Source of the DNA: Candidatus Taylorbacteria bacterium RIFCSPLOWO2_01_FULL_45_34b
Lineage (GTDB): Bacteria; Patescibacteriota; Minisyncoccia; Phycocordibacterales; DSPV01
Assembly: GCA_001822675.1 (NCBI GenBank)
Contig: MHRY01000044.1
Span: forward strand, 1 to 26,569
Direction of reading: 5' to 3'
DNA: 26,569 nucleotides
Part shown: in pieces, positions 1-26,569 of the stretch
Layout of the letters: each line of letters opens with the position of its first letter
Position numbering within the stretch: the first letter of the stretch is position 1
Position numbers and translations under genes: made by a program
Notes under the pieces: generated by a model
What the model saw: only the letters and a program-made list of their open reading frames with translations
Databases searched by the model: none
Told to the model about the DNA's origin: nothing

Positions 1-80
1 TCTCGCTTTGTGTTTTACCGAGGCGGAGCCTCGGGGAAGTGTTTTTTGATGAGCAGTCAGTTTTTGGCTCGAAGCCAATT
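1..80 (+). repeat. Copy 1 (5'-truncated by the window edge) of a ~105-bp three-hairpin repeat family, R1
   Basis: ctcgctttgtgtttt + ccgaggcggagcctcgggg hairpin + T-run + gtcagtttttggctcgaagccaatt hairpin. Near-identical to 982-1100 and 2066-2170. Confidence 0.7.
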
Positions 81-303
81 TACAGAGGGTTCTTACTTGT
101 CTTTCTGTGGGTACAACTTGCAGGAAACGACAATCTTTCCTCCCTTGAAAACCCCTCAACCGATGGGTTTTCTCGTCTCGACCGGTTGATGAGCGACGCA
201 TGGCGATTACAACTTTTCTGCGAGTGTCAGGGTTGCGAAATTAAGTCGGAACGGGAGTGCTCTCTGGGGTGCTTTTCATTGGGGAGTATGATACAATCGG
301 GAA

Positions 304-543
304 ATGGAAAGACTTACCATTGAACTCATTCCAGATCTGGAACAGGGCGGCTACACCGCCCGTGTGTCTGACATTCCCGCCTATGGTGAAGGAGCGACAG
401 AAGAAGAGGCGATTGCTGATTTGAGGGAAGCTCTCCGTACGTATATCGAAGCCTTTGGACTGAAGGACGCGCTTGCTCGTGTTAATTCGCCGGCAAAGCT
501 CAAACAGCTTAGTGTCAGTCTCAAAGACTTCTCACTTGCCTAG
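304..543 (+). CDS. hicB: HicB-family antitoxin (UPF0150-like)
   Basis: 79 aa. The GGYTARVSDIPAYGEGATEEEAIADLREALRTYIEA pattern matches the HicB/UPF0150 fold signature. Sits immediately upstream of a HicA-like ORF. Confidence 0.7.
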   Translation: MERLTIELIPDLEQGGYTARVSDIPAYGEGATEEEAIADLREALRTYIEAFGLKDALARVNSPAKLKQLSVSLKDFSLA

Positions 544-568
544 ATTTCCCCGACCGACAGGAAAAGAA

Positions 569-766
569 ATGATCTCATTCCTGACGAAACAGGGCTTTTC
601 AATCGTACGTGTACGTGGCAGTCATCACGCTATGGAGAAAGGTGATCTCCGCACGACGGTACCTCTCCATGGCAATGAGCCCATTAAAATAGGGACGCTT
701 CGTGGTATTCTTAAAGATATCAATCTGGCACCCGATGAATTCGTGGAACTCTGGGAAAAGTTTTGA
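569..766 (+). CDS. hicA: HicA-family mRNA-interferase toxin
   Basis: 66 aa from the internal ATG at 569. FLTKQGFSIVRVRGSHHAM..TVPLHGNEPIKIGTLRGILKDINL is a classic HicA (YcfA) signature. The 5' extension back to 473 overlaps hicB and is unlikely to be real. Confidence 0.78.
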   Translation: MISFLTKQGFSIVRVRGSHHAMEKGDLRTTVPLHGNEPIKIGTLRGILKDINLAPDEFVELWEKF

Positions 767-792
767 AGCTACTGAAAAGGTTATTACAAATT

Positions 793-809
793 CCAAGGTT
801 CAACCTTGG
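793..809. repeat. REP-like palindrome CCAAGGTTCAACCTTGG
   Basis: Perfect 8-bp arms. Belongs to the AGGT-N-ACCT palindrome family also seen flanking the RAYT gene. Confidence 0.7.
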
Positions 810-813
810 AATG

Positions 814-872
814 CAAAAAAAGCGAGGACTCCATAGAGTTCTCGCTTTGTGTTTCCCCGAGGCTTAGCTTTT
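814..872 (+). repeat. Truncated copy R2 of the ~105-bp repeat (hairpin A plus the first half of hairpin B only)
   Basis: aaaaaaagcgaggactccatagagttctcgctttgtgtttccccgaggcttagc. The second arm of hairpin B and all of hairpin C are missing. Confidence 0.6.
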
Positions 873-981
873 CCCAGTAGTTTTTTCCAAACTTTTCCCC
901 TCTAAAAAACCCATTTCCAAGAGGACTAAAAGGTACCTATCTGAAGCGATCGCCCCAGATAGGTTACAAGGTTCTGATAAA

Positions 982-1100
982 GAAAAAGCGAGGGTTCCGA
1001 AGAACTCTCGCTTTGCGTTGTGTCCCCGGAGGCGAAGCCTCGGGGAAGTGTTTTTATTTTAGGAGAGAAGATTGGTCAGTTTTTGGCTCGGAGCCAACTG
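982..1100 (+). repeat. Full copy R3 of the ~105-bp three-hairpin repeat
   Basis: Hairpin A is aaagcgag-ggttccgaagaact-ctcgcttt. Hairpin B is ccccggaggcgaagcctcgggg followed by gtgttttt. Hairpin C is ttggctcggagccaa. Confidence 0.75.
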
Positions 1101-1208
1101 TTAAGCATCTAACCCCCCTGTTCATGCTTATTTTCATGTAGACGATTGCCATTAGCAGCTGGCTCATGGTATTATTTTTACGTGACTGAAGAAGGAAAAC
1201 AGAAAATT

Positions 1209-1601
1209 ATGGCTATTGCTAAAAAATACAACCTTGCCTTGCTGGTGCTTTTCGGCTCGCGAGCAAGGGGCGATGCACTAGAAAAAAGTGATTTTGATGT
1301 TGCTTATTCCTCTATTGCACCCATGGATTTAGTCGAGGAAAGTGAAATGGCTGTAGAACTGCATGAAATTTTCAAGACAATCAATGTAGATATGGTAAAT
1401 CTATCGAACGCCAATCCCTTACTCATGAAAAAAATTGTTGATGAAGGTGTTGTTCTTTATGAGGCTAAGGAATCACTATTCAATAGTTTGTATTTATACG
1501 CGATGAGAATTTACCGCGAGTCAGAGTTTCTAAACAAAGTGCGCCGTGAATATGTACTAAGTAGAATTAATCAGCACAAAAAAGATGCCGCTCGAGCTTG
1601 A
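1209..1601 (+). CDS. mntA: MntA-type minimal nucleotidyltransferase (antitoxin of a HepT/MntA pair)
   Basis: LFGSRARGDALEKSDFDV matches the GSxxRG..DxD nucleotidyltransferase motif. RBS gaaggaaaa lies 13 nt before the ATG at 1209. The ORF could extend back to 1146. Overlaps the downstream HepT ORF by 17 nt. Confidence 0.72.
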   Translation: MAIAKKYNLALLVLFGSRARGDALEKSDFDVAYSSIAPMDLVEESEMAVELHEIFKTINVDMVNLSNANPLLMKKIVDEGVVLYEAKESLFNSLYLYAMRIYRESEFLNKVRREYVLSRINQHKKDAARA

Positions 1602-2019
1602 TAAAAATCTTATCACCAGGAAACTTGCTCTTCTCGATGGTTATATCGCCGAGTTGGAACCGATAGTGTCATTAACCGAGGAAGAAATTCTCAAAGATTC
1701 TCTGAAATTTCACGTGGCGGAAAGAATGTTTCAGCTTATTGTTGATGAAATGATTGATATAAATACCCACTTGATTCGGGTAAAAACATTAACACCGCCA
1801 GATGACATTCAGAGTACATTTACTGTCTTAGCGAAGGCTGGCATTTTACCCGCAGATTTCACCAAAAAAATTTCACCTGTCGTTGGTTTGCGTAACGCGG
1901 TTGTGCATCGCTATGAACATGTTAGTCTGGGGCGTTTTATCCATGAACTTAAACGTAACTTCGGTGATTTCAAAGACTATCTTATTCACATCAATTCTTT
2001 TATCGAAAAGGCTACATAG
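1585..2019 (+). CDS. hepT: HepT-type HEPN toxin (DUF86)
   Basis: 144 aa. C-terminal GLRNAVVHRYEHV is the Rx4HxY HEPN catalytic motif. Translationally coupled to the upstream nucleotidyltransferase. Confidence 0.8.
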   Translation: MPLELDKNLITRKLALLDGYIAELEPIVSLTEEEILKDSLKFHVAERMFQLIVDEMIDINTHLIRVKTLTPPDDIQSTFTVLAKAGILPADFTKKISPVVGLRNAVVHRYEHVSLGRFIHELKRNFGDFKDYLIHINSFIEKAT

Positions 2020-2065
2020 TTTAAGGCTTGGTATTGGATGGGAGATATTTGGGGGGTCTATTAAA

Positions 2066-2170
2066 AGAAAAAAGCGAGGGTTCCGAAGAACTCTCGCTTT
2101 ATGTTTCCCCGAGGCTAAGCCTAGGGAATTTGTTGGGAGAGGCGGTTAGTTTTTGGCTCGAAGCCAATTT
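2066..2170 (+). repeat. Full copy R4 of the ~105-bp three-hairpin repeat (hairpin B degenerate)
   Basis: aaaaaagcgagggttccgaagaactctcgcttt..ccccgaggctaagcctaggg..gttagtttttggctcgaagccaattt. Sits directly 3' of hepT. Confidence 0.75.
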
Positions 2171-2748
2171 ATGTGAGCTTCTCCCCCTTTGTCCGTGCCC
2201 CATCCTTTGAAAATCGTTGGAGATGGGTCTGCTGGATTGTCTGGTTCCAAAAACCATTCCCCGTGGTTTGGCGGAACTGGTTGTTGCCACACGCCGTTTG
2301 TGGCGTGGGCGAATTTGTTCCAAGTGAATTCAGCCCTCGTTCCATTCGGTAGGAATACCACGAAGTCGAACCTGACTTGGTCGTAGTATAGAATTTTCGC
2401 CGGATGGCTTTCTTTCCGAATGGTTGGGTCAAGTCCTCGCACATGTGGCAGCTTGCTCCACCCATACTCCCAATCCCGCATGGTCGGGTTCCTTGCCCGC
2501 ACTACAGTGGCGGCTTTTTGCCGTTCCTTTTCTTCTGCCAGGCTTTTTTCTTTCACTGTTTTCATGTCAGCCCAATCCTTCTTGATGATTGGTCGGGCTG
2601 ATAGCCAGCAGACTATGAATAGACCAAGGAAGATGACCCACTTTGTTTCCGTCTTGGCCTTAATTTTGTTTAGGCCATAACTGGTGAGCCAGAGGGTAAT
2701 AATTACCAATGCCACAACCTTCAGAATGTACAGGGCATCTGTTGTCAT
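2146..2748 (-). CDS. Hypothetical two-TM membrane protein, possible partner of the upstream SPFH protein
   Basis: ATG at 2748 overlaps the SPFH stop as ATGA. Two hydrophobic helices sit at the N-terminus and a soluble C-terminal domain follows. No recognisable motif. The 3' end overlaps repeat R4. Confidence 0.45.
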   Translation of the reverse strand: MTTDALYILKVVALVIITLWLTSYGLNKIKAKTETKWVIFLGLFIVCWLSARPIIKKDWADMKTVKEKSLAEEKERQKAATVVRARNPTMRDWEYGWSKLPHVRGLDPTIRKESHPAKILYYDQVRFDFVVFLPNGTRAEFTWNKFAHATNGVWQQPVPPNHGEWFLEPDNPADPSPTIFKGWGTDKGGEAHINWLRAKN

Positions 2749-3866
2749 GGTGTCCCTCCTCCCCGAGCCATCCATTTCTCGACAGCGTCCTTGAGAATGA
2801 CCGCGACGTTGGTGAGGTCGCCCCTTGTCTCCGTCCTAGTGATCTTGCCGAGTTGAGTTAAGACAATCCGGCTGGCTTCGTCATCGTTCATCTCGGGGAA
2901 CTTTTTCTTCAGTTCGGCAATAGCGTTTTGTATGAGCAAAACCTGCTCGTTGTCGGCCTCCCTTTTTTTCATCGCCCGCGTGACTGACTCGTAAGCTTTC
3001 GATGTGTCAGGGTCGAGATAATCAATCTTTGGAATGACCACGCCAATAATTTTTACACCGAGATGATCAATTGTCCGAACGCGCTCGTTCTCATCCATGT
3101 CGTCCTCGATTGCCTCCTTAACCTTTTTTTCCCAGTCGTCCCGTTTTTCCATAAACTCCAGGTCGCTGACCTCGGCGCCGCATTGGCGGAGGCTTTTGAT
3201 AGCTAGATCTCCAACTGTCCTTTCTACCGATTGCCCTTGCTTTTGCAACTCATCTTCGACGTTGAGGAAGTACCAAGGGTTGGTCACTTGCCAGCGGACA
3301 ACGATTCTTGCCTTCATAACCACCAGCCGTTTTTTTGATTTGCCGATGGAGTCAATAGTGTTGACCGTTAAAGGTTCACCATCTTCTTTTGGGATAGTGA
3401 GAACCTGGTGCTTTTGGCTGACGTTCTTTACGGTCATTATGAAGGGGAAGACCCATGTCCAACCCTCTTCAAATGCCTCTCCGGGCTTCCTTTTCTGTAG
3501 GATCCTTGGCACGCCATAGTTTCTTTCTGGTACCAAGTGAAGCCCCTGCTTCATGAGGACAAGGGAGAACAGGACTACAGCGATGCCAATGACCCAATCA
3601 AGACCGTTGCTGAGATACAAGATAATCAGTAGTGCTAAGATCATGGTCACTGTAGCCGCTATGCCATTCATAAGCCACTCCCGACTGTCCCAAACCGCTG
3701 TCTTTTTCAGGCGCTTTGGTTTGCGTTTAGGGGCTGGTGGCGTTCCTCCACCTCCTGCTGGTGCAGGGGCGGGGGGTGTTGGAGGTGTAGGAGTCGGGGG
3801 AGTCGGTGCTCCGGGTCCTGGTACAGGTGTTGGCGGAGTTCCTCCGCCTGGTGTTGGTGTTGCCAT
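2745..3866 (-). CDS. SPFH/band-7 (stomatin/prohibitin-like) membrane protein with a Pro/Thr/Gly-rich N-terminus
   Basis: 373 aa from the internal ATG at 3866. Low-complexity TPPTPTPPTPPAPAP tail, a KRKPKRLKK stretch, a TM segment, then a band-7-like core (FPFIMTVKNVSQKHQVLTIPKED ... VVRWQVTNP) with a C-terminal coiled-coil. The 5' extension to 3992 runs through a REP palindrome. Confidence 0.65.
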   Translation of the reverse strand: MATPTPGGGTPPTPVPGPGAPTPPTPTPPTPPAPAPAGGGGTPPAPKRKPKRLKKTAVWDSREWLMNGIAATVTMILALLIILYLSNGLDWVIGIAVVLFSLVLMKQGLHLVPERNYGVPRILQKRKPGEAFEEGWTWVFPFIMTVKNVSQKHQVLTIPKEDGEPLTVNTIDSIGKSKKRLVVMKARIVVRWQVTNPWYFLNVEDELQKQGQSVERTVGDLAIKSLRQCGAEVSDLEFMEKRDDWEKKVKEAIEDDMDENERVRTIDHLGVKIIGVVIPKIDYLDPDTSKAYESVTRAMKKREADNEQVLLIQNAIAELKKKFPEMNDDEASRIVLTQLGKITRTETRGDLTNVAVILKDAVEKWMARGGGTP

Positions 3867-3897
3867 ACTTTTTTCCTTTCTGGTATTTCTGAATTGG

Positions 3898-3912
3898 CTA
3901 GGTTGAACCTCG
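3898..3912. repeat. REP-like palindrome (aggttgaacct core)
   Basis: ctaGGTTGAACCtcg. The same core occurs at 4405-4417 with shared flank ccatcttt. Confidence 0.55.
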
Positions 3913-3988
3913 CCATCTTTTCTTTTTGCTGACTGACTTTCTCCAAAACAAATTGTCAAAGTTCCAACTCTGACAGAACAAAGCCCAT

Positions 3989-4005
3989 ACAAGGTTCGAC
4001 CTTGT
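3989..4005. repeat. REP-like palindrome ACAAGGTTCGACCTTGT
   Basis: 7-bp stem with a TCG loop. Same family as the hairpins flanking the RAYT gene. Confidence 0.7.
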
Positions 4006-4209
4006 AGTAAGACTAACTGAATCTACGAAAAGGTTAGCACGGTTTTATATAAAAGTCAATGGATTGGTTTATACCAAAAAACGCTTCTGTAGAGCCACTT
4101 TTATCCAGCCTAGTTTTTTGGTGATTCTGTTCATAACCCGCGTATTTCTCGCCGCACCATATGGCCCAATTTAACAAACCAATATAAAAAGTTTATCGAG
4201 GACTTATTT

Positions 4210-4226
4210 CCAAGGACTAACCTTGG
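4210..4226. repeat. REP-like palindrome CCAAGGACTAACCTTGG
   Basis: 6-bp arms with a 5-nt loop. A second copy lies at 4373-4388. Confidence 0.6.
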
Positions 4227-4250
4227 GTTTTACTTTGAAAGTGTTAGGTT

Positions 4251-4273
4251 ATGTCAAGGTTTAACCTTGACAT
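4251..4273. repeat. REP-like 23-bp palindrome ATGTCAAGGTTTAACCTTGACAT
   Basis: 11-bp perfect arms. Exact reverse-complement copy at 15474-15496. Confidence 0.75.
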
Positions 4274-4312
4274 ACTTTGTCATTTCCAGACACTTAATTT
4301 AGAGTTGTATTT

Positions 4313-4372: not shown

Positions 4373-4388
4373 CAAGGACTAACCTTGG
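4373..4388. repeat. REP-like palindrome CAAGGACTAACCTTGG
   Basis: Copy of the 4210 element. Preceded by the direct repeat acaaggact(t6)acaaggact. Confidence 0.55.
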
Positions 4389-4404: not shown

Positions 4405-4417
4405 GAGGTTGAACCTC
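4405..4417. repeat. REP-like palindrome GAGGTTGAACCTC
   Basis: 6-bp arms. The right flank catcatctttcc matches the flank of the 3898 copy. Confidence 0.55.
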
Positions 4418-4492
4418 ATCATCTTTCCGTGTTGTTTTATGTTTAAAAAGAAAGCCAACCGGATGGGTTGGCTTTCGGGCGAAGGGAAGAAC

Positions 4493-6832: not shown

Positions 6833-7270
6833 GCGGAGAATATGATAGCATGTTTTCTTGTCATGCCAGCTACAACTTTTTCGATTTGAAAAGTCGCAGC
6901 CCCCGCCTCCTTACGCTTCGCTCCAGTCCGGCTCGGACATTGTGAAAAAGTATTGTCGTCACGAGTTACTAAGTATTTTGCTTCGACAACTCGCAAAATA
7001 CTAAGTGCTCGCGACCCCGCCTTGCCCGTTTTTGTTGGTACAAAAACATGGCTGCGGCTCGGACAAGATAGAAAAGTCTCAAGCAGTTGAGATTTTTCTA
7101 TCTTGTCCGCCCACCTGGATTCGGCCGCGACTCAAACCTCGCCGCCGCTCGGTTTGGTCTGGCCACCGCCTCGCGATTTTTGCTACTGCAAAAATATCGC
7201 TCCGGCGTTCGAATCCAGACACCCCGCAAGCAGTTGCGGGGTTGTGGGCGGCCAATATTCAGAAATATTG

Positions 7271-7342
7271 TCCGCCCACCTGGATTCGAACCAGGGACCT
7301 TACGCTTAAGAGGCGTTTGCTCTACCAACTGAGCTATGGGCG
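7271..7342 (-). tRNA. tRNA-Lys (anticodon CTT)
   Basis: Minus-strand read CCGCCCA-TA-GCTC-AGTTGGTA-GAGC-A-AACGC-CTCTTAA-GCGTA-AGGTC-CCTGG-TTCGAAT-CCAGG-TGGGCGG-A. Canonical cloverleaf. CCA is not encoded. Confidence 0.85.
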
Positions 7343-10734: not shown

Positions 10735-10751
10735 ACGAGGTCGAACCTCGT
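10735..10751. repeat. REP hairpin ACGAGGTCGAACCTCGT (outer, left of the RAYT element)
   Basis: 7-bp stem with a CGA loop. Confidence 0.7.
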
Positions 10752-10772
10752 CACCTATTTTTTGTGTTATAA

Positions 10773-10811
10773 TTATACCATAAAAAATCTCTCTACAAGG
10801 TTCGACCTCGT
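10773..10811 (+). repeat. Left flank module of the RAYT gene: 15-nt direct repeat ATTATACCATAAAAA + 7 nt + REP hairpin ACAAGGTTCGACCTCGT
   Basis: The same module (attataccataaaaa-N7-cgaggtcgaacctcg) recurs at 11478-11515 on the other side of the gene, in the same orientation. Confidence 0.75.
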
Positions 10812-11467
10812 TTTTCGTTGTAATGAAGCCAATCCCGTATTGTTGTCTCAAAATCTGCCACCGTTTCAAAATATCCTGGGAAAGCCTTGCGTTCAAGAAT
10901 AACTTTTTCCGGCCTGTCCACTAAAAGAAAGTCCTGATAACTTGAGTAGGAGTAGTTTTTAAGGAAGGAAAGGGCCTTCTTTTTATTCACGATGCCCGTT
11001 TCTTTCCACGTAGATTCAATCAGTTTGATTGGGTTTAGGTGGATATACGAAAATAAATATTTCATGTATTCGTCATTATCTGCGTATTCAGCTTTAAATT
11101 TTCCTTGGAAAAGTGCTCCCGTGCGTTCCTCTTTTGTATTAAAATACATAGTATAGGCTGTGGAGAGTTTTTGCATAAATTTACTGATTCCGCCTTCCAT
11201 TTTCTCCCGTACAAGAAGGTGGAAATGATTTGGCATACAACAGTATGTTCCTATATCAATAATAGTTTTTTCTCGGTCTTGGCCGAGCATAGAATTGAGT
11301 GACCAATCAGAGTTGGTAATATGAACCGGGTTTGTACTATTGCACATATAAAGAAGTCCGATAAAACGTTTGTAATCACGATCAGCATTAAAAATTTTTC
11401 TTTTGTCCGTGCCTCTGTTATAGACATGGTAGTATCCATCTATAGAGATTTCAATATTTCTGGTCAT
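10793..11467 (-). CDS. REP-associated tyrosine transposase (RAYT; IS200-like Y1 HUH transposase family)
   Basis: 224 aa. YHVYNRG ... CMPNHFHLLV (HuH) ... GALFQGKFKA ... YIHLNPIK ... YSYSSYQDF (catalytic Tyr region). The motif order and spacing match the RAYT/TnpA_REP branch rather than the short IS200 TnpA. Flanked on both sides by REP hairpins. Confidence 0.85.
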   Translation of the reverse strand: MTRNIEISIDGYYHVYNRGTDKRKIFNADRDYKRFIGLLYMCNSTNPVHITNSDWSLNSMLGQDREKTIIDIGTYCCMPNHFHLLVREKMEGGISKFMQKLSTAYTMYFNTKEERTGALFQGKFKAEYADNDEYMKYLFSYIHLNPIKLIESTWKETGIVNKKKALSFLKNYSYSSYQDFLLVDRPEKVILERKAFPGYFETVADFETTIRDWLHYNEKRGRTL

Positions 11468-11477
11468 GTGAGAAAAT

Positions 11478-11515
11478 ATTATACCATAAAAAGTGTGTTT
11501 CGAGGTCGAACCTCG
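11478..11515 (+). repeat. Right flank module of the RAYT gene (direct repeat + REP hairpin CGAGGTCGAACCTCG)
   Basis: attataccataaaaag-tgtgttt-cgaggtcgaacctcg. Read on the minus strand, the direct repeat gives TGGTATAAT, an extended -10, 10 nt upstream of the RAYT ATG. Confidence 0.75.
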
Positions 11516-13526: not shown

Positions 13527-14258
13527 ATGGAAAAAGACAAAACGCTCCCGAATGACCCTCTTATCGAAGCCCTTTTTAAGGCTGGTGCTCATTTTGGCTA
13601 TTCAAAATCCCGACGCCACCCGACCATTGCCCCCTACATTTTCGGCGTCAAAAACCACGTCGAAATTTTTGATTTGGAAAAAACCAAGACTCTTTTGTCG
13701 AAAGCAAAGGATTTTGTAAAAGGTCTTGGTGCGCAAGGCAAAACCCTCCTTTTTGTTGGTGGCAAAAGCGAAGCCAAAGATGCAGTGCTCAAAGGTGCCA
13801 CAGTCGTTGGTATGCCTTACGTTGCGGGTCGATGGATTGGCGGTAGTTTCACTAATTTTGCCAATATTCGCGGCCGCGTGGATCGCATGGAGACGTTGGT
13901 CAAACAGCGCGAGAAAGGTGAGCTTACCAAATACACTAAAAAAGAGCGGCTTCTTATTGATAAAGAAATTGAAGACTTGAAGCGATTTTTCCTCGGTCTC
14001 GCGCCGATGAAGGAATTGCCGGCGGCTATTTTTGTCATTGATGCCAAGCATGAGCGCATCGCGGTTGCTGAAGCACGGAAGACTGGTATTCCGGTTGTCG
14101 GACTTCTCGGATCAGACTGCAATTTCAAAGATGTTACGTATCCAATTGTCGGTAATGATTCATCGATTGCGAGCATCACATTTTTCGTGGATGAAATTGT
14201 GAAAGCGTACGAGGAAGGAACGAAAGAAAAGAAAACCCAAAACTTAAAGCAGGATTAA
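13527..14258 (+). CDS. rpsB: 30S ribosomal protein S2 (uS2)
   Basis: LIEALFKAGAHFGYSKSRRHPTIAPYIFGVKNHVEIFDLEKT matches the uS2 N-terminus. Probable start is the ATG at 13527 (MEKDK). The ORF as listed opens at 13497. Confidence 0.9.
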   Translation: MEKDKTLPNDPLIEALFKAGAHFGYSKSRRHPTIAPYIFGVKNHVEIFDLEKTKTLLSKAKDFVKGLGAQGKTLLFVGGKSEAKDAVLKGATVVGMPYVAGRWIGGSFTNFANIRGRVDRMETLVKQREKGELTKYTKKERLLIDKEIEDLKRFFLGLAPMKELPAAIFVIDAKHERIAVAEARKTGIPVVGLLGSDCNFKDVTYPIVGNDSSIASITFFVDEIVKAYEEGTKEKKTQNLKQD

Positions 14259-14383
14259 ATTTCCAAGTAGCAATTTTCAATTTTCATTGAATTTTCAATG
14301 TTTTAATTTTTAAAATTGACACATTTCTGGTTTTGATTGAAAATTGTAAATTGAGATTTTTAGATAGTGTAAAATACATACAA

Positions 14384-15473: not shown

Positions 15474-15496
15474 ATGTCAAGGTTAAACCTTGACAT
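15474..15496. repeat. REP-like 23-bp palindrome ATGTCAAGGTTAAACCTTGACAT
   Basis: Exact reverse complement of the copy at 4251-4273. Confidence 0.75.
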
Positions 15497-15740: not shown

Positions 15741-16571
15741 ATGCTAAGCGAAGAAACGAAAGGCCTAAAACTTGAGGACAAGTTCGGCCGACCGGATCAA
15801 AAATTCGGTTTAGGCCACCTTCACCCTATCTCGCAAGCCATTTTGGAAATCCAAGAGATTTTTGCGGGGATGGGTTTTCATGTTGCCGAAGGGCCGGAGC
15901 TTGAAACAGAATTCTATAATTTTGATGTTCTTAATATGCCAGATGATCATCCGGCGCGCGACATGCAAGACACGTTCTGGATTAAGAATCCAGAAAATTT
16001 CCAATTTCCAATTTCCAATTTCCAAACAAATTCCAAATCACAAATTCCAAATTCTAAAAAAGAGGCAAAGAGTGAGAGGCCGGTGCTCCGTACGCATACG
16101 TCAGGGGTACAGGTTCGGGAATTAGAAAAGGGGGAATTGCCACTCCGTATCATTGTTCCCGGGAAAGTTTTTAGAAATGAAGCGACCGACGCCACGCACG
16201 AAGTGCAGTTCTATCAGCTTGAAGGTTTGATGGTTGATAAAGAGGTTTCTCTTGCGCACCTTAAAGGTGTGCTCACTCATTTTTTCGAAAAATTTCTCGG
16301 CAAAGACACAGGGATTCGTTTCCGACCAAGCTTTTTTCCTTTCACCGAGCCGTCTGTCGAAGTGGATGTGCGGTTTAGAGGTAAGTGGCTTGAAATGATG
16401 GGCGCTGGCCTTGTTCACCCGAATGTCTTAACTGCCGCTGGCATTGACGCCAAAAAGTGGCAAGGGTTTGCTTTCGGTGGCGGTTTAGACAGGCTTGTAA
16501 TGGTTAAATACGGAATCGAGGATGTCCGCCTGCTTTATTCCGGAGATTTACGCTTGGTGAATCAGTTTTAA
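15741..16571 (+). CDS. pheS: Phenylalanine--tRNA ligase alpha subunit, N-terminally short form
   Basis: HPARDMQDTFWI ... VLRTHTSGVQVR ... FRNEATDATHEVQFYQLEGL ... FFPFTEPSVEVD ... GAGLVHPNVL ... FGGGLDRL class II motifs. Only 40 nt separate it from the tRNA-Thr 3' end, so no room for the usual N-terminal coiled coil. Confidence 0.9.
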   Translation: MLSEETKGLKLEDKFGRPDQKFGLGHLHPISQAILEIQEIFAGMGFHVAEGPELETEFYNFDVLNMPDDHPARDMQDTFWIKNPENFQFPISNFQTNSKSQIPNSKKEAKSERPVLRTHTSGVQVRELEKGELPLRIIVPGKVFRNEATDATHEVQFYQLEGLMVDKEVSLAHLKGVLTHFFEKFLGKDTGIRFRPSFFPFTEPSVEVDVRFRGKWLEMMGAGLVHPNVLTAAGIDAKKWQGFAFGGGLDRLVMVKYGIEDVRLLYSGDLRLVNQF

Positions 16572-16572
16572 T

Positions 16573-18531
16573 ATGAAAATTTCTCACAACTGGCTGCAAG
16601 ATTATTTTGATAAGGAATTACCCTCACCGGAAAAATTGGCAGAGCTTTTGAACGCGCACGTTTTTGAAGTTGAGGGCTTGGATAAAGTACACGAAGACAC
16701 AATTCTCGATGTAAAAGTGCTTCCAGACAGAGCTCATTACGCCCTGTCTCATTTTGGTATCGCCTATGAAGTTTCCGCTATCACTGGAATTCCGTTAAAA
16801 AAGGAAAGAGATTTAACTGTTACATTAGGGAAGCAGACTGCGCCGAAAGTCACAGTTGAGGACGAAAAAGTATGCCGCCGATACATGGCGCGGGTTGTCG
16901 AAGGAATCGGTAAAGCCGAAACACCGAAAATTATAAAGGAAAGACTTGCCGCTATCGGCCAACGTTCGATCAATCCAATTGTTGATCTTGCAAACTACAC
17001 GATGTTTGATGTCGGCCAGCCGCTTCACGCCTTTGATGCGGATAAAGTAAAAGGAGGAATCACAGTACGAAAAGCGAAAGCGGGTGAGAAAATTACCACG
17101 CTTGATAATAAGGACGTTGCTCTTTCCGCGGACATTTTGGTTATCGCGGATGATGTGGGCCCGCTTGCCATCGCGGGCATCAAGGGCGGCAAGCGGGCCG
17201 AAGTGGATTCAAACACAAAACGAATTATTTTAGAATCTGCCACGTTTGATCCAGTTTTGATTAGGAAAACGGCGACTGCTTTAAACATCAAAACCGATGC
17301 TTCAAAGCGGTTTGAAAATAACATGCCGCCAGCCGGCGCGTTTCTTGGCATACTGCATTTTTCAAAGCGACTGGAAGATATTTTTGGCGACTCGATTTCT
17401 TTTAGCCCCTTCACTGATATATATCCTGTTCACACGGAAGATAGAACCATAGAGATAGATCTTGATTTTATTCACGCCAAACTCGGGGCAAAAGTGTCGG
17501 AAAAAGAAGTGATTGAAATTCTTGGGCGACTTTATCTTAAAGCAGAAAATAAGAAGGGTAGGTTAGTTGTTACTGTTCCAGCATGGCGTCAGGATGTTGT
17601 CATTCCTGAGGATGCTGTCGAAGAAGTTGGACGGCTGTACGGCTATGAAAAAATAAAGCCAATCGTGCCGCCGAAAGTAAAAGGGGATTTGCCTCTTAAC
17701 AAAAATTTCTACTACGCGAACAAAATCAAACTCATTTTGGCAAACCACGGCTTTTCAGAAATTTACACTTCAACCTTTGATAAAGTGGGTGAGCGGGAAG
17801 TACTCTATCCTGTGGCGTCAGATAAAAATTTTTTGCGGACGGAATTGACAAAGTCAATGGCGAAGGCACTCGAGTTCAATCTTCGAAATACCGACCTCCT
17901 TAATCTCAATCAAATCAAGCTTTTTGAAATTGGTAAAATTTTCAAAGATGGGAAGGAGATTAATTCTTTAGTTGTTGGTATTACAAACACCAAAAGTATT
18001 AAAACTAAAGTAAATGATTTAATTCGAGATGCGCGTGAAATGCTCATAAAAGAGTTAGGAGCCGATGTTCAAACGGTTTGCACTATTGATGACAGTGGGG
18101 GACTGCTTCTTCTTGGAGGCCAGCAAATTGGTACCATAAATGCCATCGATGGGGTTATGGAAGTGAATCTTGACCTGTTTATTGCTTCTCTGCCCGATCC
18201 GAAAGGCTCAACCTTACAGACTGTAAGGTTGAGCCTTTCGAGTCTTGTTTACAGACCGTTTTCAAAGTACCCATTTATCGTTCGAGATGTTGCTATCTTT
18301 GTGCCGGAAAGTACAAAAGTGGTTGAAGTTCTTGCGGTAATCAAAAAAGAAACCAGTACGTTACTTGTAAATGATTATCTGTTCGACGAATTCAAAAAAG
18401 GTGACAAAATTTCTTACGCCTTCCGCCTCGTCTTTCAATCTTTCGAAAAAACACTGACCGATGATGAGGTGAATAGGATTATGAAAAAAGTAGCCGCGGC
18501 AGTCACAGCAATGGGATGGCAGGTGAGATAA
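16573..18531 (+). CDS. pheT: Phenylalanine--tRNA ligase beta subunit (short, ~650 aa)
   Basis: MKISHNWLQDYF start. B3/B4 and B5 domain-like regions and a C-terminal anticodon-binding-like FDEFKKGDKISYAFRLVFQ. Start lies 2 nt after the pheS stop. Confidence 0.88.
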   Translation: MKISHNWLQDYFDKELPSPEKLAELLNAHVFEVEGLDKVHEDTILDVKVLPDRAHYALSHFGIAYEVSAITGIPLKKERDLTVTLGKQTAPKVTVEDEKVCRRYMARVVEGIGKAETPKIIKERLAAIGQRSINPIVDLANYTMFDVGQPLHAFDADKVKGGITVRKAKAGEKITTLDNKDVALSADILVIADDVGPLAIAGIKGGKRAEVDSNTKRIILESATFDPVLIRKTATALNIKTDASKRFENNMPPAGAFLGILHFSKRLEDIFGDSISFSPFTDIYPVHTEDRTIEIDLDFIHAKLGAKVSEKEVIEILGRLYLKAENKKGRLVVTVPAWRQDVVIPEDAVEEVGRLYGYEKIKPIVPPKVKGDLPLNKNFYYANKIKLILANHGFSEIYTSTFDKVGEREVLYPVASDKNFLRTELTKSMAKALEFNLRNTDLLNLNQIKLFEIGKIFKDGKEINSLVVGITNTKSIKTKVNDLIRDAREMLIKELGADVQTVCTIDDSGGLLLLGGQQIGTINAIDGVMEVNLDLFIASLPDPKGSTLQTVRLSLSSLVYRPFSKYPFIVRDVAIFVPESTKVVEVLAVIKKETSTLLVNDYLFDEFKKGDKISYAFRLVFQSFEKTLTDDEVNRIMKKVAAAVTAMGWQVR

Positions 18532-23718: not shown

Positions 23719-26358
23719 ATGATGCAGAATAATAACAAAAACATGAAAAAGATGACGTCCAGACTTTTTGGTTTTCGTTTTCCGATACTCGGACTTGTTC
23801 TGACTGCCGCCTTCTTTGGTTTCTCGAACAATGTTGCTTTGGCATGGAATCTTCAAGGATCTTGTTCTGTGGCGCCTGCTTCACCGAATATTGGCGAGAC
23901 TGTAACGTGGACGGCTACGCAGACATCTACCATGACGCCAAGCCAAGGTCATTATGAATATTCATGGAGCGGCACTGACGGACTAGCTGGCATCTCGAAC
24001 CCTGTTTCAAAAAGTTACGCGACTACTGGCACCAAAAATGCCACGGTGGTTATTATGCTTGTTTTAAATGCCGGTGGTCGTGAGAAGATTACCCGAAATT
24101 GTTTCACTGTTGTGAAAACTTCTCCACCACTGCCTGGTCAATGCAAACTTGAAATGACTAAGGAGGTTGATAAAGCAACTGCAACAGTTGGCGATGTGCT
24201 TACCTATACGCTTACTTTTAAAAATAGCGGAGACGCCGACTGCACTGGCGGCGGCGTGCGAATTCAGGATGTTGTAGATTCAGCGCTCACGTATCAAAGT
24301 GAAACTCGTAGCGGCAACGTTGATGTGGGATACAACAGCATTCCGCTTTACAGCGCCTCGACTCGGACGTTGAATTGGAATGGCAATGTGTTGACGCCGG
24401 GTGAGAGCGGTTCAATTTCTTGGAAGGGAAAGGTCAACGAACCTGCGGCTTGCGGGGTGTTCGATATTCCTAATAAAGCCCGAATCACCTCGGCAGAGTA
24501 TTCGCCAGCCGATCTCATGACGACCCCGAGCGTTTGGGTCGAGAGCAATACTGTTAAAACGACAATCACTAAGGATTGCCCGCTGCCACTAGAGCTTTCT
24601 GTCACATGCACTGCCAATCCTTCGGCTGTCCAGACTGGCGATGCTGTTACATGGAGTTCCACCGCTTCCGGCGGGGTTGGTTCGTATACATATAGTTGGA
24701 CAGGAGATGACGGTTTTTCTAGTACCGACCAAACTGATTCAAAATCGTACACGTCATCGGGTACTAAAAATGCCACAGTAACGGTTACCTCCAGTTCTGA
24801 AACTATTTCAAAAACCTGCACCACTTCCGTGGCGTCGCCCACGTCTTCACCCTCTCCGCTTTCGGGAAGTTGTGCTGTCAGCCCGACAGCTGTAGAAATC
24901 GGTCAGGAAGTTACCTGGAGCGCTAGCGCAACTGGCGGCACAGGTTCTTATACCTATTCATGGTCTGGTACTGATGGTTTGACTGGTTCGGACGCTTCCG
25001 TCAGCCGCTCCTATGCTTCATCAGGAACCAAGATGGGCAATGTCACTATTACTTCCGGATCGGAGTCAATAACTTCAAATGCTTGTTCTGTTGATATTAA
25101 ACCGTCTTCGACTTGCACGAGTAATTGCGGCGGAGGTGGAGGTGTGGGTGGCGGGGGTGGTTACAATCCGCCAACGGTGGTGCTTCTTAAAAAGGCCGAG
25201 AAACTGCCACTCGCATTCGTGTACTTAAGCCAAATTCCATACACTGGTTTTGGCGACAGTTTTAAAGTTATTGCTTTTATTCTCGGACTAATTATCTGGA
25301 GTATTTTAGTTGTATATCTTTTTAAGTCTGGTATCATTCTTCGGGTTATTGAGAGAATTCAAAAACGTTTAAAACGAGAGGAACCTAATCTCGTCAAAGA
25401 AGAAACACAAGTTCCGATTGATGAAAATAGTCTTATTACCGAGAGCCCAGATTATCAAAAATATATGGAAGAAGATTCCACAACCACATATAAGCATAGC
25501 AACCAATCGTACGCATATGCCGGTATTTCGGCAAACCCCTCTTTTATTCCGGACAATCTGCCCGGGGAAGACATTTCGCTTGAACCGACTGTGGTGGATG
25601 AGCGAAATATTCGCGAAGCGCTTTTGGCAAAAGCCCGCGAGCGAAAAACTCTTATCTCTGAAGACGCAGTCAAACTTCTGCTCCAATCTTTGTCGGGTAA
25701 TTACGCCAAGGCCGAAACGGCACTTACAAAAGTGATTGACGATGCCGAGACCAAGTATGTCAAAGAGGACGGTTGGATTTTACTCAATCGTGAAAAGATG
25801 GCGCTTCTTTTACCAACTCCTCATTTTTCTGTGAATTCTTCAAAAACAACGCCTCCAGCGCCAAATGGCATGTTTGTTCCGACCGCGCTTGAGCGAGAGA
25901 GTTATGCTTTGCCTCGTTTTTCGGATAAAGCTCCGGTTGCGAAGGTTGAAAATACTACAGCTCCGGTCCCTGCGCCTGTTTCCTACGCGCAGACTTCGAA
26001 TCATTCAAATAGCGCTCCTGTCTTTCTTTCAACATTGTCATTTATTCGGGCAATTGTTGCAAAGGATAGCCAGAAAGTATTTGCAGTACTCCGCACGCTT
26101 CGACAAGAAGGTAAAAATGTCGAAGACTTTATCAAATCCGTTATCTACGAACTTGATGAGGCGTATCGCGGACGCTTGGAAGAGGGAATCCGTGGTGGTA
26201 ATGTTGAACTTAAAACTGTTGTGTCAGCTTGGACGAACGATGATTTGGAAGAAGTAATTACGATTTTTCTTACCATCATTGATCAAAGTTACAAGAATTC
26301 TTTGACCGGCCTTAAGCTTGCGATCATGAGAATTTTGGATTTGAAGAAGCGAGGGTAA
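23719..26358 (+). CDS. Large cell-surface protein: signal peptide, three PKD-like ~75-aa repeats and a DUF11-like domain, Gly-run, IPYTG + TM segment, then a ~340-aa cytoplasmic tail
   Basis: Signal MKKMTSRLFGFRFPILGLVLTAAFFGFSNNVALA. Repeats are bounded by Cys with (T/V)TW ... YSWSG(T/D)DG ... SKSY ... GTKNATV. VGDVLTYTLTFKNSGDADCTG matches the DUF11-type fold. The membrane region is KLPLAFVYLSQIPYTGFGDSFKVIAFILGLIIWSILVVYLFKSG. Confidence 0.7.
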   Translation: MMQNNNKNMKKMTSRLFGFRFPILGLVLTAAFFGFSNNVALAWNLQGSCSVAPASPNIGETVTWTATQTSTMTPSQGHYEYSWSGTDGLAGISNPVSKSYATTGTKNATVVIMLVLNAGGREKITRNCFTVVKTSPPLPGQCKLEMTKEVDKATATVGDVLTYTLTFKNSGDADCTGGGVRIQDVVDSALTYQSETRSGNVDVGYNSIPLYSASTRTLNWNGNVLTPGESGSISWKGKVNEPAACGVFDIPNKARITSAEYSPADLMTTPSVWVESNTVKTTITKDCPLPLELSVTCTANPSAVQTGDAVTWSSTASGGVGSYTYSWTGDDGFSSTDQTDSKSYTSSGTKNATVTVTSSSETISKTCTTSVASPTSSPSPLSGSCAVSPTAVEIGQEVTWSASATGGTGSYTYSWSGTDGLTGSDASVSRSYASSGTKMGNVTITSGSESITSNACSVDIKPSSTCTSNCGGGGGVGGGGGYNPPTVVLLKKAEKLPLAFVYLSQIPYTGFGDSFKVIAFILGLIIWSILVVYLFKSGIILRVIERIQKRLKREEPNLVKEETQVPIDENSLITESPDYQKYMEEDSTTTYKHSNQSYAYAGISANPSFIPDNLPGEDISLEPTVVDERNIREALLAKARERKTLISEDAVKLLLQSLSGNYAKAETALTKVIDDAETKYVKEDGWILLNREKMALLLPTPHFSVNSSKTTPPAPNGMFVPTALERESYALPRFSDKAPVAKVENTTAPVPAPVSYAQTSNHSNSAPVFLSTLSFIRAIVAKDSQKVFAVLRTLRQEGKNVEDFIKSVIYELDEAYRGRLEEGIRGGNVELKTVVSAWTNDDLEEVITIFLTIIDQSYKNSLTGLKLAIMRILDLKKRG

Positions 26359-26412
26359 GGTGGATTCTGGATTCAAGGTTCTAAATTCAGGAATGAGAGA
26401 ATAAAAAATAAG

Positions 26413-26448
26413 AAAATCCCCGCCGTCCTTTCGGACGGCGGGGATTTG
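26413..26448 (+). terminator. Intrinsic-terminator-like hairpin after the surface-protein gene
   Basis: aaaatccccgccgtcc-tttc-ggacggcggggatttg, a 13-bp GC-rich stem. Confidence 0.6.
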
Positions 26449-26569
26449 ACATGTGATGAGATTCTTGGTAATTTACTCTTGGAACACAACACCTCTCCTC
26501 ACCCCTCAATACGAACTTCTGGAAAGTTAATTGCTAATGATTCAACCAGTGTACCATGTTCGTATTCCA

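Follow-up and report, generated by a model that had tools for sequence, protein, structure and literature searches.

A three-hairpin repeat around two toxin-antitoxin operons in a Taylorbacteria chromosome

The locus and its four repeat copies

The contig MHRY01000044.1 of Candidatus Taylorbacteria bacterium RIFCSPLOWO2_01_FULL_45_34b, 26,569 nucleotides long and called the window in this report, carries near its beginning two toxin-antitoxin (TA) operons, hicB-hicA and mntA-hepT. They are surrounded by copies of a repeated unit which consists of three successive hairpins, A, B and C. The setting is chromosomal DNA of an uncultivated bacterium of the candidate phyla radiation (CPR); the window contains pheT, gyrB, rpsB, tsf, a release factor gene and three tRNAs. 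An initial annotation, made from the sequence alone, had proposed four same-orientation copies of the unit, and repeat search and alignment bear this out. Four plus-strand copies of 105-127 nt are arranged in one orientation in the order repeat, TA, repeat, repeat, TA, repeat. A pattern spanning the junction of hairpins A and B matches at exactly four sites in the window (1, 840, 1006 and 2092), with 0 expected from 100 shuffles. With a covariance model derived from them, the copies reach 74-137 bits (E 1e-15 to 1e-30); neither the window nor the preceding 10 kb contains an additional plus-strand match, and on the minus strand the model matches the palindromic hairpin A only. The locus was recovered in more than 20 independent assemblies of Rifle aquifer metagenomes, with the same arrangement in at least 20 of them. 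The arrangement is therefore not an assembly artefact.

The unit extends from an A-tract (AAAAGAAAAA) ahead of hairpin A to about 4 nt beyond hairpin C, and no significant similarity exists past either end. Copy 1 (1..82, 93 bits, marked as 5'-cut) has lost the 5' arm of hairpin A, while hairpins B (18-34) and C (64-78) are intact. Its truncation, already ascribed to the window, is indeed due to the window edge alone: in other assemblies of the locus copy 1 is complete (contig L001, 9670-9782, 137.5 bits). Copy 2 (812..920, 74.5 bits) had been considered truncated at 872, wrongly so. It is of full length with an intact hairpin A, which carries a compensatory stem variant, and with decayed hairpins B and C (folding -2.6 and 0). 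Copy 3 (978..1104, 106 bits) possesses all three hairpins and the longest linker between B and C (-46.8 kcal/mol, z -3.3). Copy 4 (2064..2174, 117.8 bits) has one mismatch in hairpin B, and its hairpin C overlaps a convergent open reading frame (-41.1 kcal/mol, z -3.55). An unrelated 13-bp palindrome, flagged as a minus-strand terminator-like site, is located between copies 2 and 3 (935..964).

The unit folds with the three-hairpin anatomy originally described, with z about -3.3 to -3.6 against shuffles. The stem of hairpin A comprises 13 bp with -19 to -20 kcal/mol and is thereby equal in stability to a canonical terminator which the window has at 4450-4476 (-19.5). On the plus strand it is preceded by the A-tract and followed by TTTGTGTTTT; the minus-strand tail reads TTTTTCTTT. 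Pairing of this stem is 100% across eight variants, and two pairs show compensatory double changes (GGAC/GTTC versus GGGT/ACTC). The stable stem and the position after stop codons bear out the terminator-like character attributed to the repeat. Hairpin B (CCGAGGC-gga-GCCTCGG) folds with -12 to -17 kcal/mol, and 5 nt separate its stem from the U-run behind it. At -6 to -9 kcal/mol, hairpin C (TTGGCT-cga-AGCCAA) is weak. Length and sequence of the linkers between the hairpins vary. The non-Watson-Crick pairs of the intact copies are mostly G.U on the plus strand, and on the minus strand hairpin A loses about 3.5 kcal/mol of stability. Both features would mildly favour folding on the plus strand, i.e., the strand of the pilin and TA genes.

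Family models and named homologues establish that the flanked genes are those initially called. The antitoxin gene hicB (304..543, plus strand, 79 aa) has many homologues named HicB family antitoxin and a weak match to Pfam PHD_like. The toxin gene hicA (569..766, plus strand, 65 aa) matches Pfam HicA_toxin (57 bits, E 1.7e-15). The nucleotidyltransferase antitoxin gene mntA (1209..1601, plus strand) matches NCBIfam MntA_antitoxin with 79.8 bits (cutoff 60) and Pfam Polbeta; the RNase toxin gene hepT (1585..2019, plus strand) matches NCBIfam HepT_toxin with 90.1 bits (cutoff 60) and Pfam HepT-like. Thus, the locus contains a type II HicBA and a type VII MntA-HepT system as adjacent two-gene operons, with HicA, MntA and HepT above cutoff and HicB assigned via its named homologues. 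Both have promoter-like sites outside the unit: mntA-hepT at 1146..1175 on the plus strand (TTGCCA-18-TATTAT with TG), and hicB an extended -10 box (TGATACAAT) read from the sequence. The GC content of the two operons is 0.47-0.51 versus 0.39; it is within the spread of host genes and thus not decisive for a foreign origin.

The position of the unit relative to stop codons is regular. Five T4SS_pilin genes stand in tandem, and complete copy 1 starts 31 nt past the stop codon of the final one; the copies behind hicA and hepT start 46 and 45 nt after the respective stops, and all are co-oriented with these genes. On the other side, a convergent membrane-protein gene of 200 aa (2146..2748, minus strand) ends inside copy 4, the hairpin C of which encodes its last 8 codons and the stop (INWLRAKN*). 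A relative of this protein with 72% identity also has its stop within the unit. Since a pilin gene precedes one copy and a convergent gene ends within another, the repeat is not TA-specific. Copies 1 and 3 keep the minus-strand reading NWLRAKN*. A large segmental duplication carrying gene sequence is unsupported: past hairpin C, neither DNA nor protein comparison reveals anything significant beyond the last 8 codons.

Two observations concern the neighbouring genes themselves. Upstream of the window (L001, 7651-9639), the five small paralogues of the T4SS_pilin family, arranged in tandem, are strongly divergent among strains (L009, L097, L005). The Band_7/SPFH gene (2745-3992, minus strand) has a Pro/Thr/Gly-rich low-complexity N-terminal region, and its called length differs between assemblies (308 versus 373 aa).

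Variation among strains and distribution of the unit

Strain variants of the locus are diverged by 40-50% on the pilin side and identical from the hairpin A apex of copy 1 onward. The window and several other contigs start inside hairpin A because the strains branch there. On the opposite side one variant shows no difference until hairpin A of copy 4 ends; a strongly diverged stretch follows (2100 to 2561), after which the sequences are identical once more. Copy 4 of this variant carries a hairpin B of the copy-3 type. The diverged segment corresponds to the C-terminal two-thirds of the 200-aa membrane protein, which are hypervariable (72% amino acid identity overall), while the N-terminal part and the neighbouring DNA are identical. 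Strain variants of hairpin B (L010) and hairpin C (L116) keep their pairing through different sequences. Comparable mosaic junctions occur elsewhere, e.g., around tRNA-Lys at about 7.1-7.3 kb; since junctions are also located at other conserved spots, crossovers at short conserved sequences are general in this population.

The copies are mosaics of each other. With respect to hairpin A, copy 1 matches copy 2 and copy 3 matches copy 4; with respect to hairpin B, copy 1 is close to copy 3 and copy 2 is close to copy 4. By comparison of the copies, this points to gene conversion.

The genome was examined from -10 kb to +26 kb, about 36 kb or some 4% of a genome of roughly 1 Mb, and the covariance model finds no unit outside the locus within this span. 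A metagenome scan with an A-B junction pattern that fits all four copies returned two contigs, both of this locus; the scan is incomplete, as at least two contigs from the Joint Genome Institute (JGI) known to carry the unit (L009, L017) were missed. Scans of viral contigs with two exact unit motifs and a blastn search of copy 3 against plasmids and phages gave no match. In the metagenome, species-genome and viral collections, which were queried with exact unit motifs only and are incomplete, the unit is thus essentially confined to this locus.

A scan of species-representative genomes, in which the genome of the window is absent, with a pattern for hairpin A hit 77 contigs, each with one site and almost all from unrelated taxa. 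This pattern is palindromic and retrieves mostly generic terminators; single sites per contig in mostly unrelated taxa are what a generic terminator shape would give. Two of the matches are from CPR genomes (Yonathbacteria, L092 and L093). In both, a lone hairpin A directly follows a T4SS_pilin-like gene and faces a convergent gene. The shared position suggests that hairpin A may be the ancestral terminator of the pilin genes.

The TA operons have relatives in other contexts, and there the unit is missing. Relatives of hepT (69-79% identical) from four other contexts lack it, with a gap of 5-48 nt to the next gene or a neighbour which overlaps hepT; relatives of hicB (78-89% identical) from four other contexts lack it too. 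For both modules together, relatives with 69-89% identity were covered in nine other contexts, all of them unit-free. Since the relatives elsewhere carry none, the TA modules move between genomes without the unit, and the unit is a feature of this host locus. The notion of the initial annotation that each TA module travels with the repeat fails in view of these unit-free relatives. The closest hicB relative outside the locus (89% identical; L118, 1-400) is positioned directly after a tRNA 3' end, and its hicA partner has decayed to a fragment.

REP-like palindromes, a Y1 transposase gene and further repeats

The window harbors a separate family of palindromes resembling repetitive extragenic palindromic (REP) sequences, (C/G)AAGGTYnRACCTTG or CGAGGTcgaACCTCG, with about ten sites (790-812, 3988-4006, 4210-4226, 4250-4274, 4373-4387, 4405-4417, 10735-10751, 10797-10813, 11501-11515 and 15474-15496). 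Six copies cluster in the intergenic region at about 3.9-4.4 kb, and some have a GTAG end. One perfect palindrome, ATTCCAAGGTT-c-AACCTTGGAAT (790..812), lies directly 5' of copy 2.

The initial annotation had recommended a look for an integrase or HUH gene nearby, outside of the window. A Y1 (HUH, IS200-like) transposase-like gene does exist nearby, yet it is inside the window (10793..11467, minus strand, 224 aa; Pfam Y1_Tnp 39.9 bits, cutoff 23). Against NCBIfam REP_Tyr_transpos it scores 39 bits, below the cutoff of 80. It is flanked on both sides by REP-like hairpins (CGAGGTcgaACCTCG) and by a direct repeat ATTATACCATAAAAA (10772-10786 and 11478-11492), which on the minus strand equals an extended -10 box (TGGTATAAT). 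The palindromes and the Y1 gene are a candidate for a system of REPs and REP-associated tyrosine transposase (RAYT) in a CPR genome. For the three-hairpin unit the Y1 gene is context only, and any connection is putative. Apart from Y1, the genes called between -10 kb and +26 kb include no integrase or tyrosine recombinase.

A kinship between hairpin C and the REP hairpins, likewise proposed at the outset, is weak; hairpin B is the REP-like one. It resembles the REP-like family of the window (CGAGGT-cga-ACCTCG) without being identical, and in a strain variant of copy 4 it reads CCCCGAGGCTAAACCTTGGGG. Two REP-like terminator hairpins enclose hicBA in a related genome. In the literature on CPR integrons and on links between REP/RAYT systems and TA modules we found nothing specific.

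A perfect inverted repeat of 20+20 nt with a REP-like core (AAGGCTCAACCTT / AAGGTTGAGCCTT) is located at 18200-18240 within the coding region of pheT. A direct repeat of 24 nt (7100-7123 and 7265-7288) overlaps tRNA-Lys at its 3' end and adjoins a 23-bp palindrome (7060-7109); strain contigs differ exactly there, and the region 7060-7290 has the look of an att-type remnant left by an integrated element. Short ATTTCCA-type tandem repeats occur at 14257-14298 and 15995-16062, the second set inside the called pheS reading frame. At the end of the window (about 26358-26569) every assembly that contains the last gene stops about 230 nt after it. Because all assemblies stop at this place, the 3' end of the window is a universal assembly break, either a repeat or a strain branch point.

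Identity, probable function and alternatives

The view that the unit is not obviously a described element holds: it matches neither an Rfam family nor attC nor dif. No Rfam family reaches its gathering threshold for the unit (the three tRNAs are all that pass in the window), and a permissive Rfam scan yields sub-threshold matches only, in which hairpin A aligns with the terminator stem at the end of a small RNA (sRNA) model. An attC site was rejected since the unit forms three separate hairpins instead of one long stem, and its ends AAAAGAAAAAGCGAG and GCCAATTTA lack the conserved R''/R' motifs (RYYYAAC ... GTTRRRY). Matches to the 28-bp core of dif/Xer sites are at chance level and none is in the unit; the only consensus used is of the E. 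coli type. The features of a miniature inverted-repeat transposable element (MITE) are absent: the unit ends are not mutual inverted repeats, and the flanks share no duplicated bases. REPs, bacterial interspersed mosaic elements (BIMEs) and REP doublets forming hairpins (REPINs) are expected in many dispersed copies, and the unit is found at this locus only, both in the 36 kb and in the metagenome scan.

Similarities to known systems are partial. What hairpin A shares with the bidirectional intrinsic terminators of convergent gene pairs is a GC-rich stem (13 bp, about -19 kcal/mol), preceded by an A-tract and followed by a U-rich stretch, and a location 31-46 nt past stops; in related CPR genomes a lone hairpin A occupies the same post-pilin position. 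Here, by contrast, two further conserved hairpins are added, the unit of about 110 nt is repeated four times within 2.2 kb, and the U-tract is interrupted (TTTGTGTTTT). With the REPs and BIMEs of enterobacteria and pseudomonads, which are associated with RAYT Y1 transposases, the unit shares the mosaic of short palindromic hairpins, the variable linkers and the location at gene 3' ends; hairpin B is REP-like, and the window has a Y1 gene flanked by REP-like hairpins. It differs in that it is not dispersed (four copies, one locus), that hairpins A and C are outside the REP-like family, and that hairpin B has no conserved GTAG/CGTC tag. REPs are linked to termination and to protection of mRNA 3' ends (e.g., PMC3733652, PMC3479197).

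Integron cassette arrays consist of small genes, often TA pairs in chromosomal integrons, with same-orientation attC repeats of about 60-140 nt in between, much as at this locus. Here no single long imperfect hairpin, no R''/R' motifs and no intI gene nearby exist, the cassettes have their own promoters, and no other cassettes with the repeat were found. IS200/IS605 elements and their non-autonomous derivatives, the palindrome-associated transposable elements (PATEs), flank a cargo with similar, directly oriented subterminal hairpins and lack target duplications, and a Y1 gene lies in the vicinity here; yet no conserved cleavage tetranucleotide was identified, no extra copies or empty sites were found, and the hairpins of the Y1 gene are unlike A and C. 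In the dif modules of Acinetobacter plasmids, Xer sites flank TA and other modules (PMC6449649). These modules are small, often TA, and bounded by short recombination sites, as the strain exchange boundaries here are at the repeat. The unit has no 11-6-11 XerC/XerD-like site, its repeats are direct instead of alternating, and it is chromosomal and in a CPR bacterium.

On balance, it is somewhat more probable than otherwise that the unit is a composite block of a terminator and REP-like hairpins, locally multiplied in a strain-variable TA hotspot, which ends and insulates small transcription units, and that hairpin A is an incidental crossover point. Hairpin A would be a strong bidirectional Rho-independent terminator which leads the plus-strand hairpin cluster; B would be a REP-like stem-loop and C a small and weak one. 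The unit would mark the 3' ends of three successive plus-strand transcription units, i.e., the pilin cluster, hicBA and mntA-hepT, and via hairpin A it would also serve the end of the convergent 200-aa gene. The ancestral terminator region of the pilin genes was probably duplicated locally, as horizontally acquired TA operons settled into a strain-variable intergenic hotspot, and later homogenised by gene conversion. We infer both the termination activity and this duplication history. The function would be to stop and insulate transcription between small operons, and probably to protect their 3' ends. Incidentally, the conserved hairpin A may also provide the short homology at which strains swap neighbouring variable genes.

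Several points speak against this interpretation. A consensus terminator scanner did not flag hairpin A, which has only 4-5 T in the next 8 nt because its U-run partly pairs with the A-tract. Hairpin B is not a canonical terminator because its U-run is 5 nt away from the stem, and the stability of hairpin C is low. A single terminator would suffice, and termination alone explains neither the three conserved hairpins with their sharp shared boundaries nor the presence of four copies instead of three. That the strain-invariant TA island has both its junctions at hairpin A is likewise not predicted by plain duplication. Finally, with some 36 kb of about 1 Mb searched and L009 and L017 missed in the metagenome scan, absence of the unit elsewhere is not proven.

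Four other interpretations have to be weighed; each of them is less likely than a locally multiplied terminator block. Unlikely, though it leads these four, is that the unit or hairpin A is a recombination site which bounds exchangeable cassettes, a CPR analogue of attC or dif, or else constitutes ends recognised by the Y1 HUH transposase in the manner of IS200/IS605. The layout repeat-TA-repeat-repeat-TA-repeat in one orientation and the sharp unit ends would be as expected; hairpin A can be read as inverted arms of 11-13 bp around a centre of 4-6 bp with symmetric arm changes kept; and the strain-identical TA island runs from the hairpin A apex of copy 1 to just past hairpin A of copy 4, with flanks diverged by 40-50%. 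The Y1 gene is 8.6 kb away, hairpin B resembles the REP-like hairpins beside it, and hicBA of the related genome lies between two REP-like terminator hairpins. However, besides Y1 no integrase or recombinase gene is found from -10 kb to +26 kb, the three separate hairpins have neither a long attC-like stem nor R''/R' motifs, and no dif-like core (E. coli-type consensus) is in the units. Moreover, each cassette has a promoter-like site of its own, the TA relatives in other contexts are unit-free, no second unit locus was found, and the region around tRNA-Lys (about 7.1-7.3 kb) has mosaic junctions as well. The cassette array considered by the initial annotation is not supported: the copies are essentially confined to this locus, in collections which are themselves incomplete. 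In its most specific form, i.e., that hairpin A or the unit is a target of site-specific recombination or of a HUH nuclease and that the block between the outer copies is a defence/TA cassette array exchanged among Taylorbacteria with no adjacent integrase, we regard the proposal as improbable.

A non-autonomous mobile repeat, a BIME-, REPIN- or MITE-like mosaic which is dispersed in the genome, inserts at gene ends and happens to cluster here as part of a larger family, is slightly less likely still. Its modular build with variable linkers and mosaic combinations is reminiscent of BIMEs, hairpin B is REP-like, the same window holds a dispersed REP-like family and a Y1 transposase, and only about 4% of the genome was covered. 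On the other hand, 34 kb of flanking genome have no further copies, the metagenome scan gave this locus only, even from Rifle samples which must hold the remaining genome, every matching species-representative contig has a single hairpin A site, and terminal inverted repeats or target-site duplications are missing. Equally improbable as the exchange of such an array among Taylorbacteria strains is that the copies are neutral relics of segmental duplications which accompanied TA insertion, with hairpins B and C and the extra copies devoid of function. The loss of hairpins B and C in copy 2 would fit, as would the coding hairpin C of copy 4 and the reading NWLRAKN* in copies 1 and 3, as if the end of the convergent gene had been co-copied; but pairing in B and C is kept in strain variants via different sequences (L010 B, L116 C), and all intact copies share the same boundaries, outside of which no decayed homology is seen. 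Very improbable is that each unit encodes an sRNA present in several copies, e.g., one that modulates the adjacent toxins. The stable plus-strand structure (z about -3.4), the G.U pairs favouring the plus strand and some covariation would be compatible with it; nothing else was found in favour of the multi-copy sRNA suggested initially. No promoter-like site exists in the unit or just ahead of it, the terminator, hairpin A, is not at the end of the unit but at its start, where it would terminate the upstream gene, the linkers are not conserved, Rfam has no match, and the TA relatives have no copy.

The recombination-site interpretation is the only one which would make the finding notable: if site-specific exchange takes place at hairpin A, this would be an undescribed form of cassette shuffling in Patescibacteria, the mobile-element biology of which is poorly known. 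If the unit is the locally multiplied terminator block which we favour, it is a tidy but ordinary case. A streamlined CPR genome would then insulate acquired TA operons by re-using one terminator block, and short conserved terminators would act as crossover points between strains.

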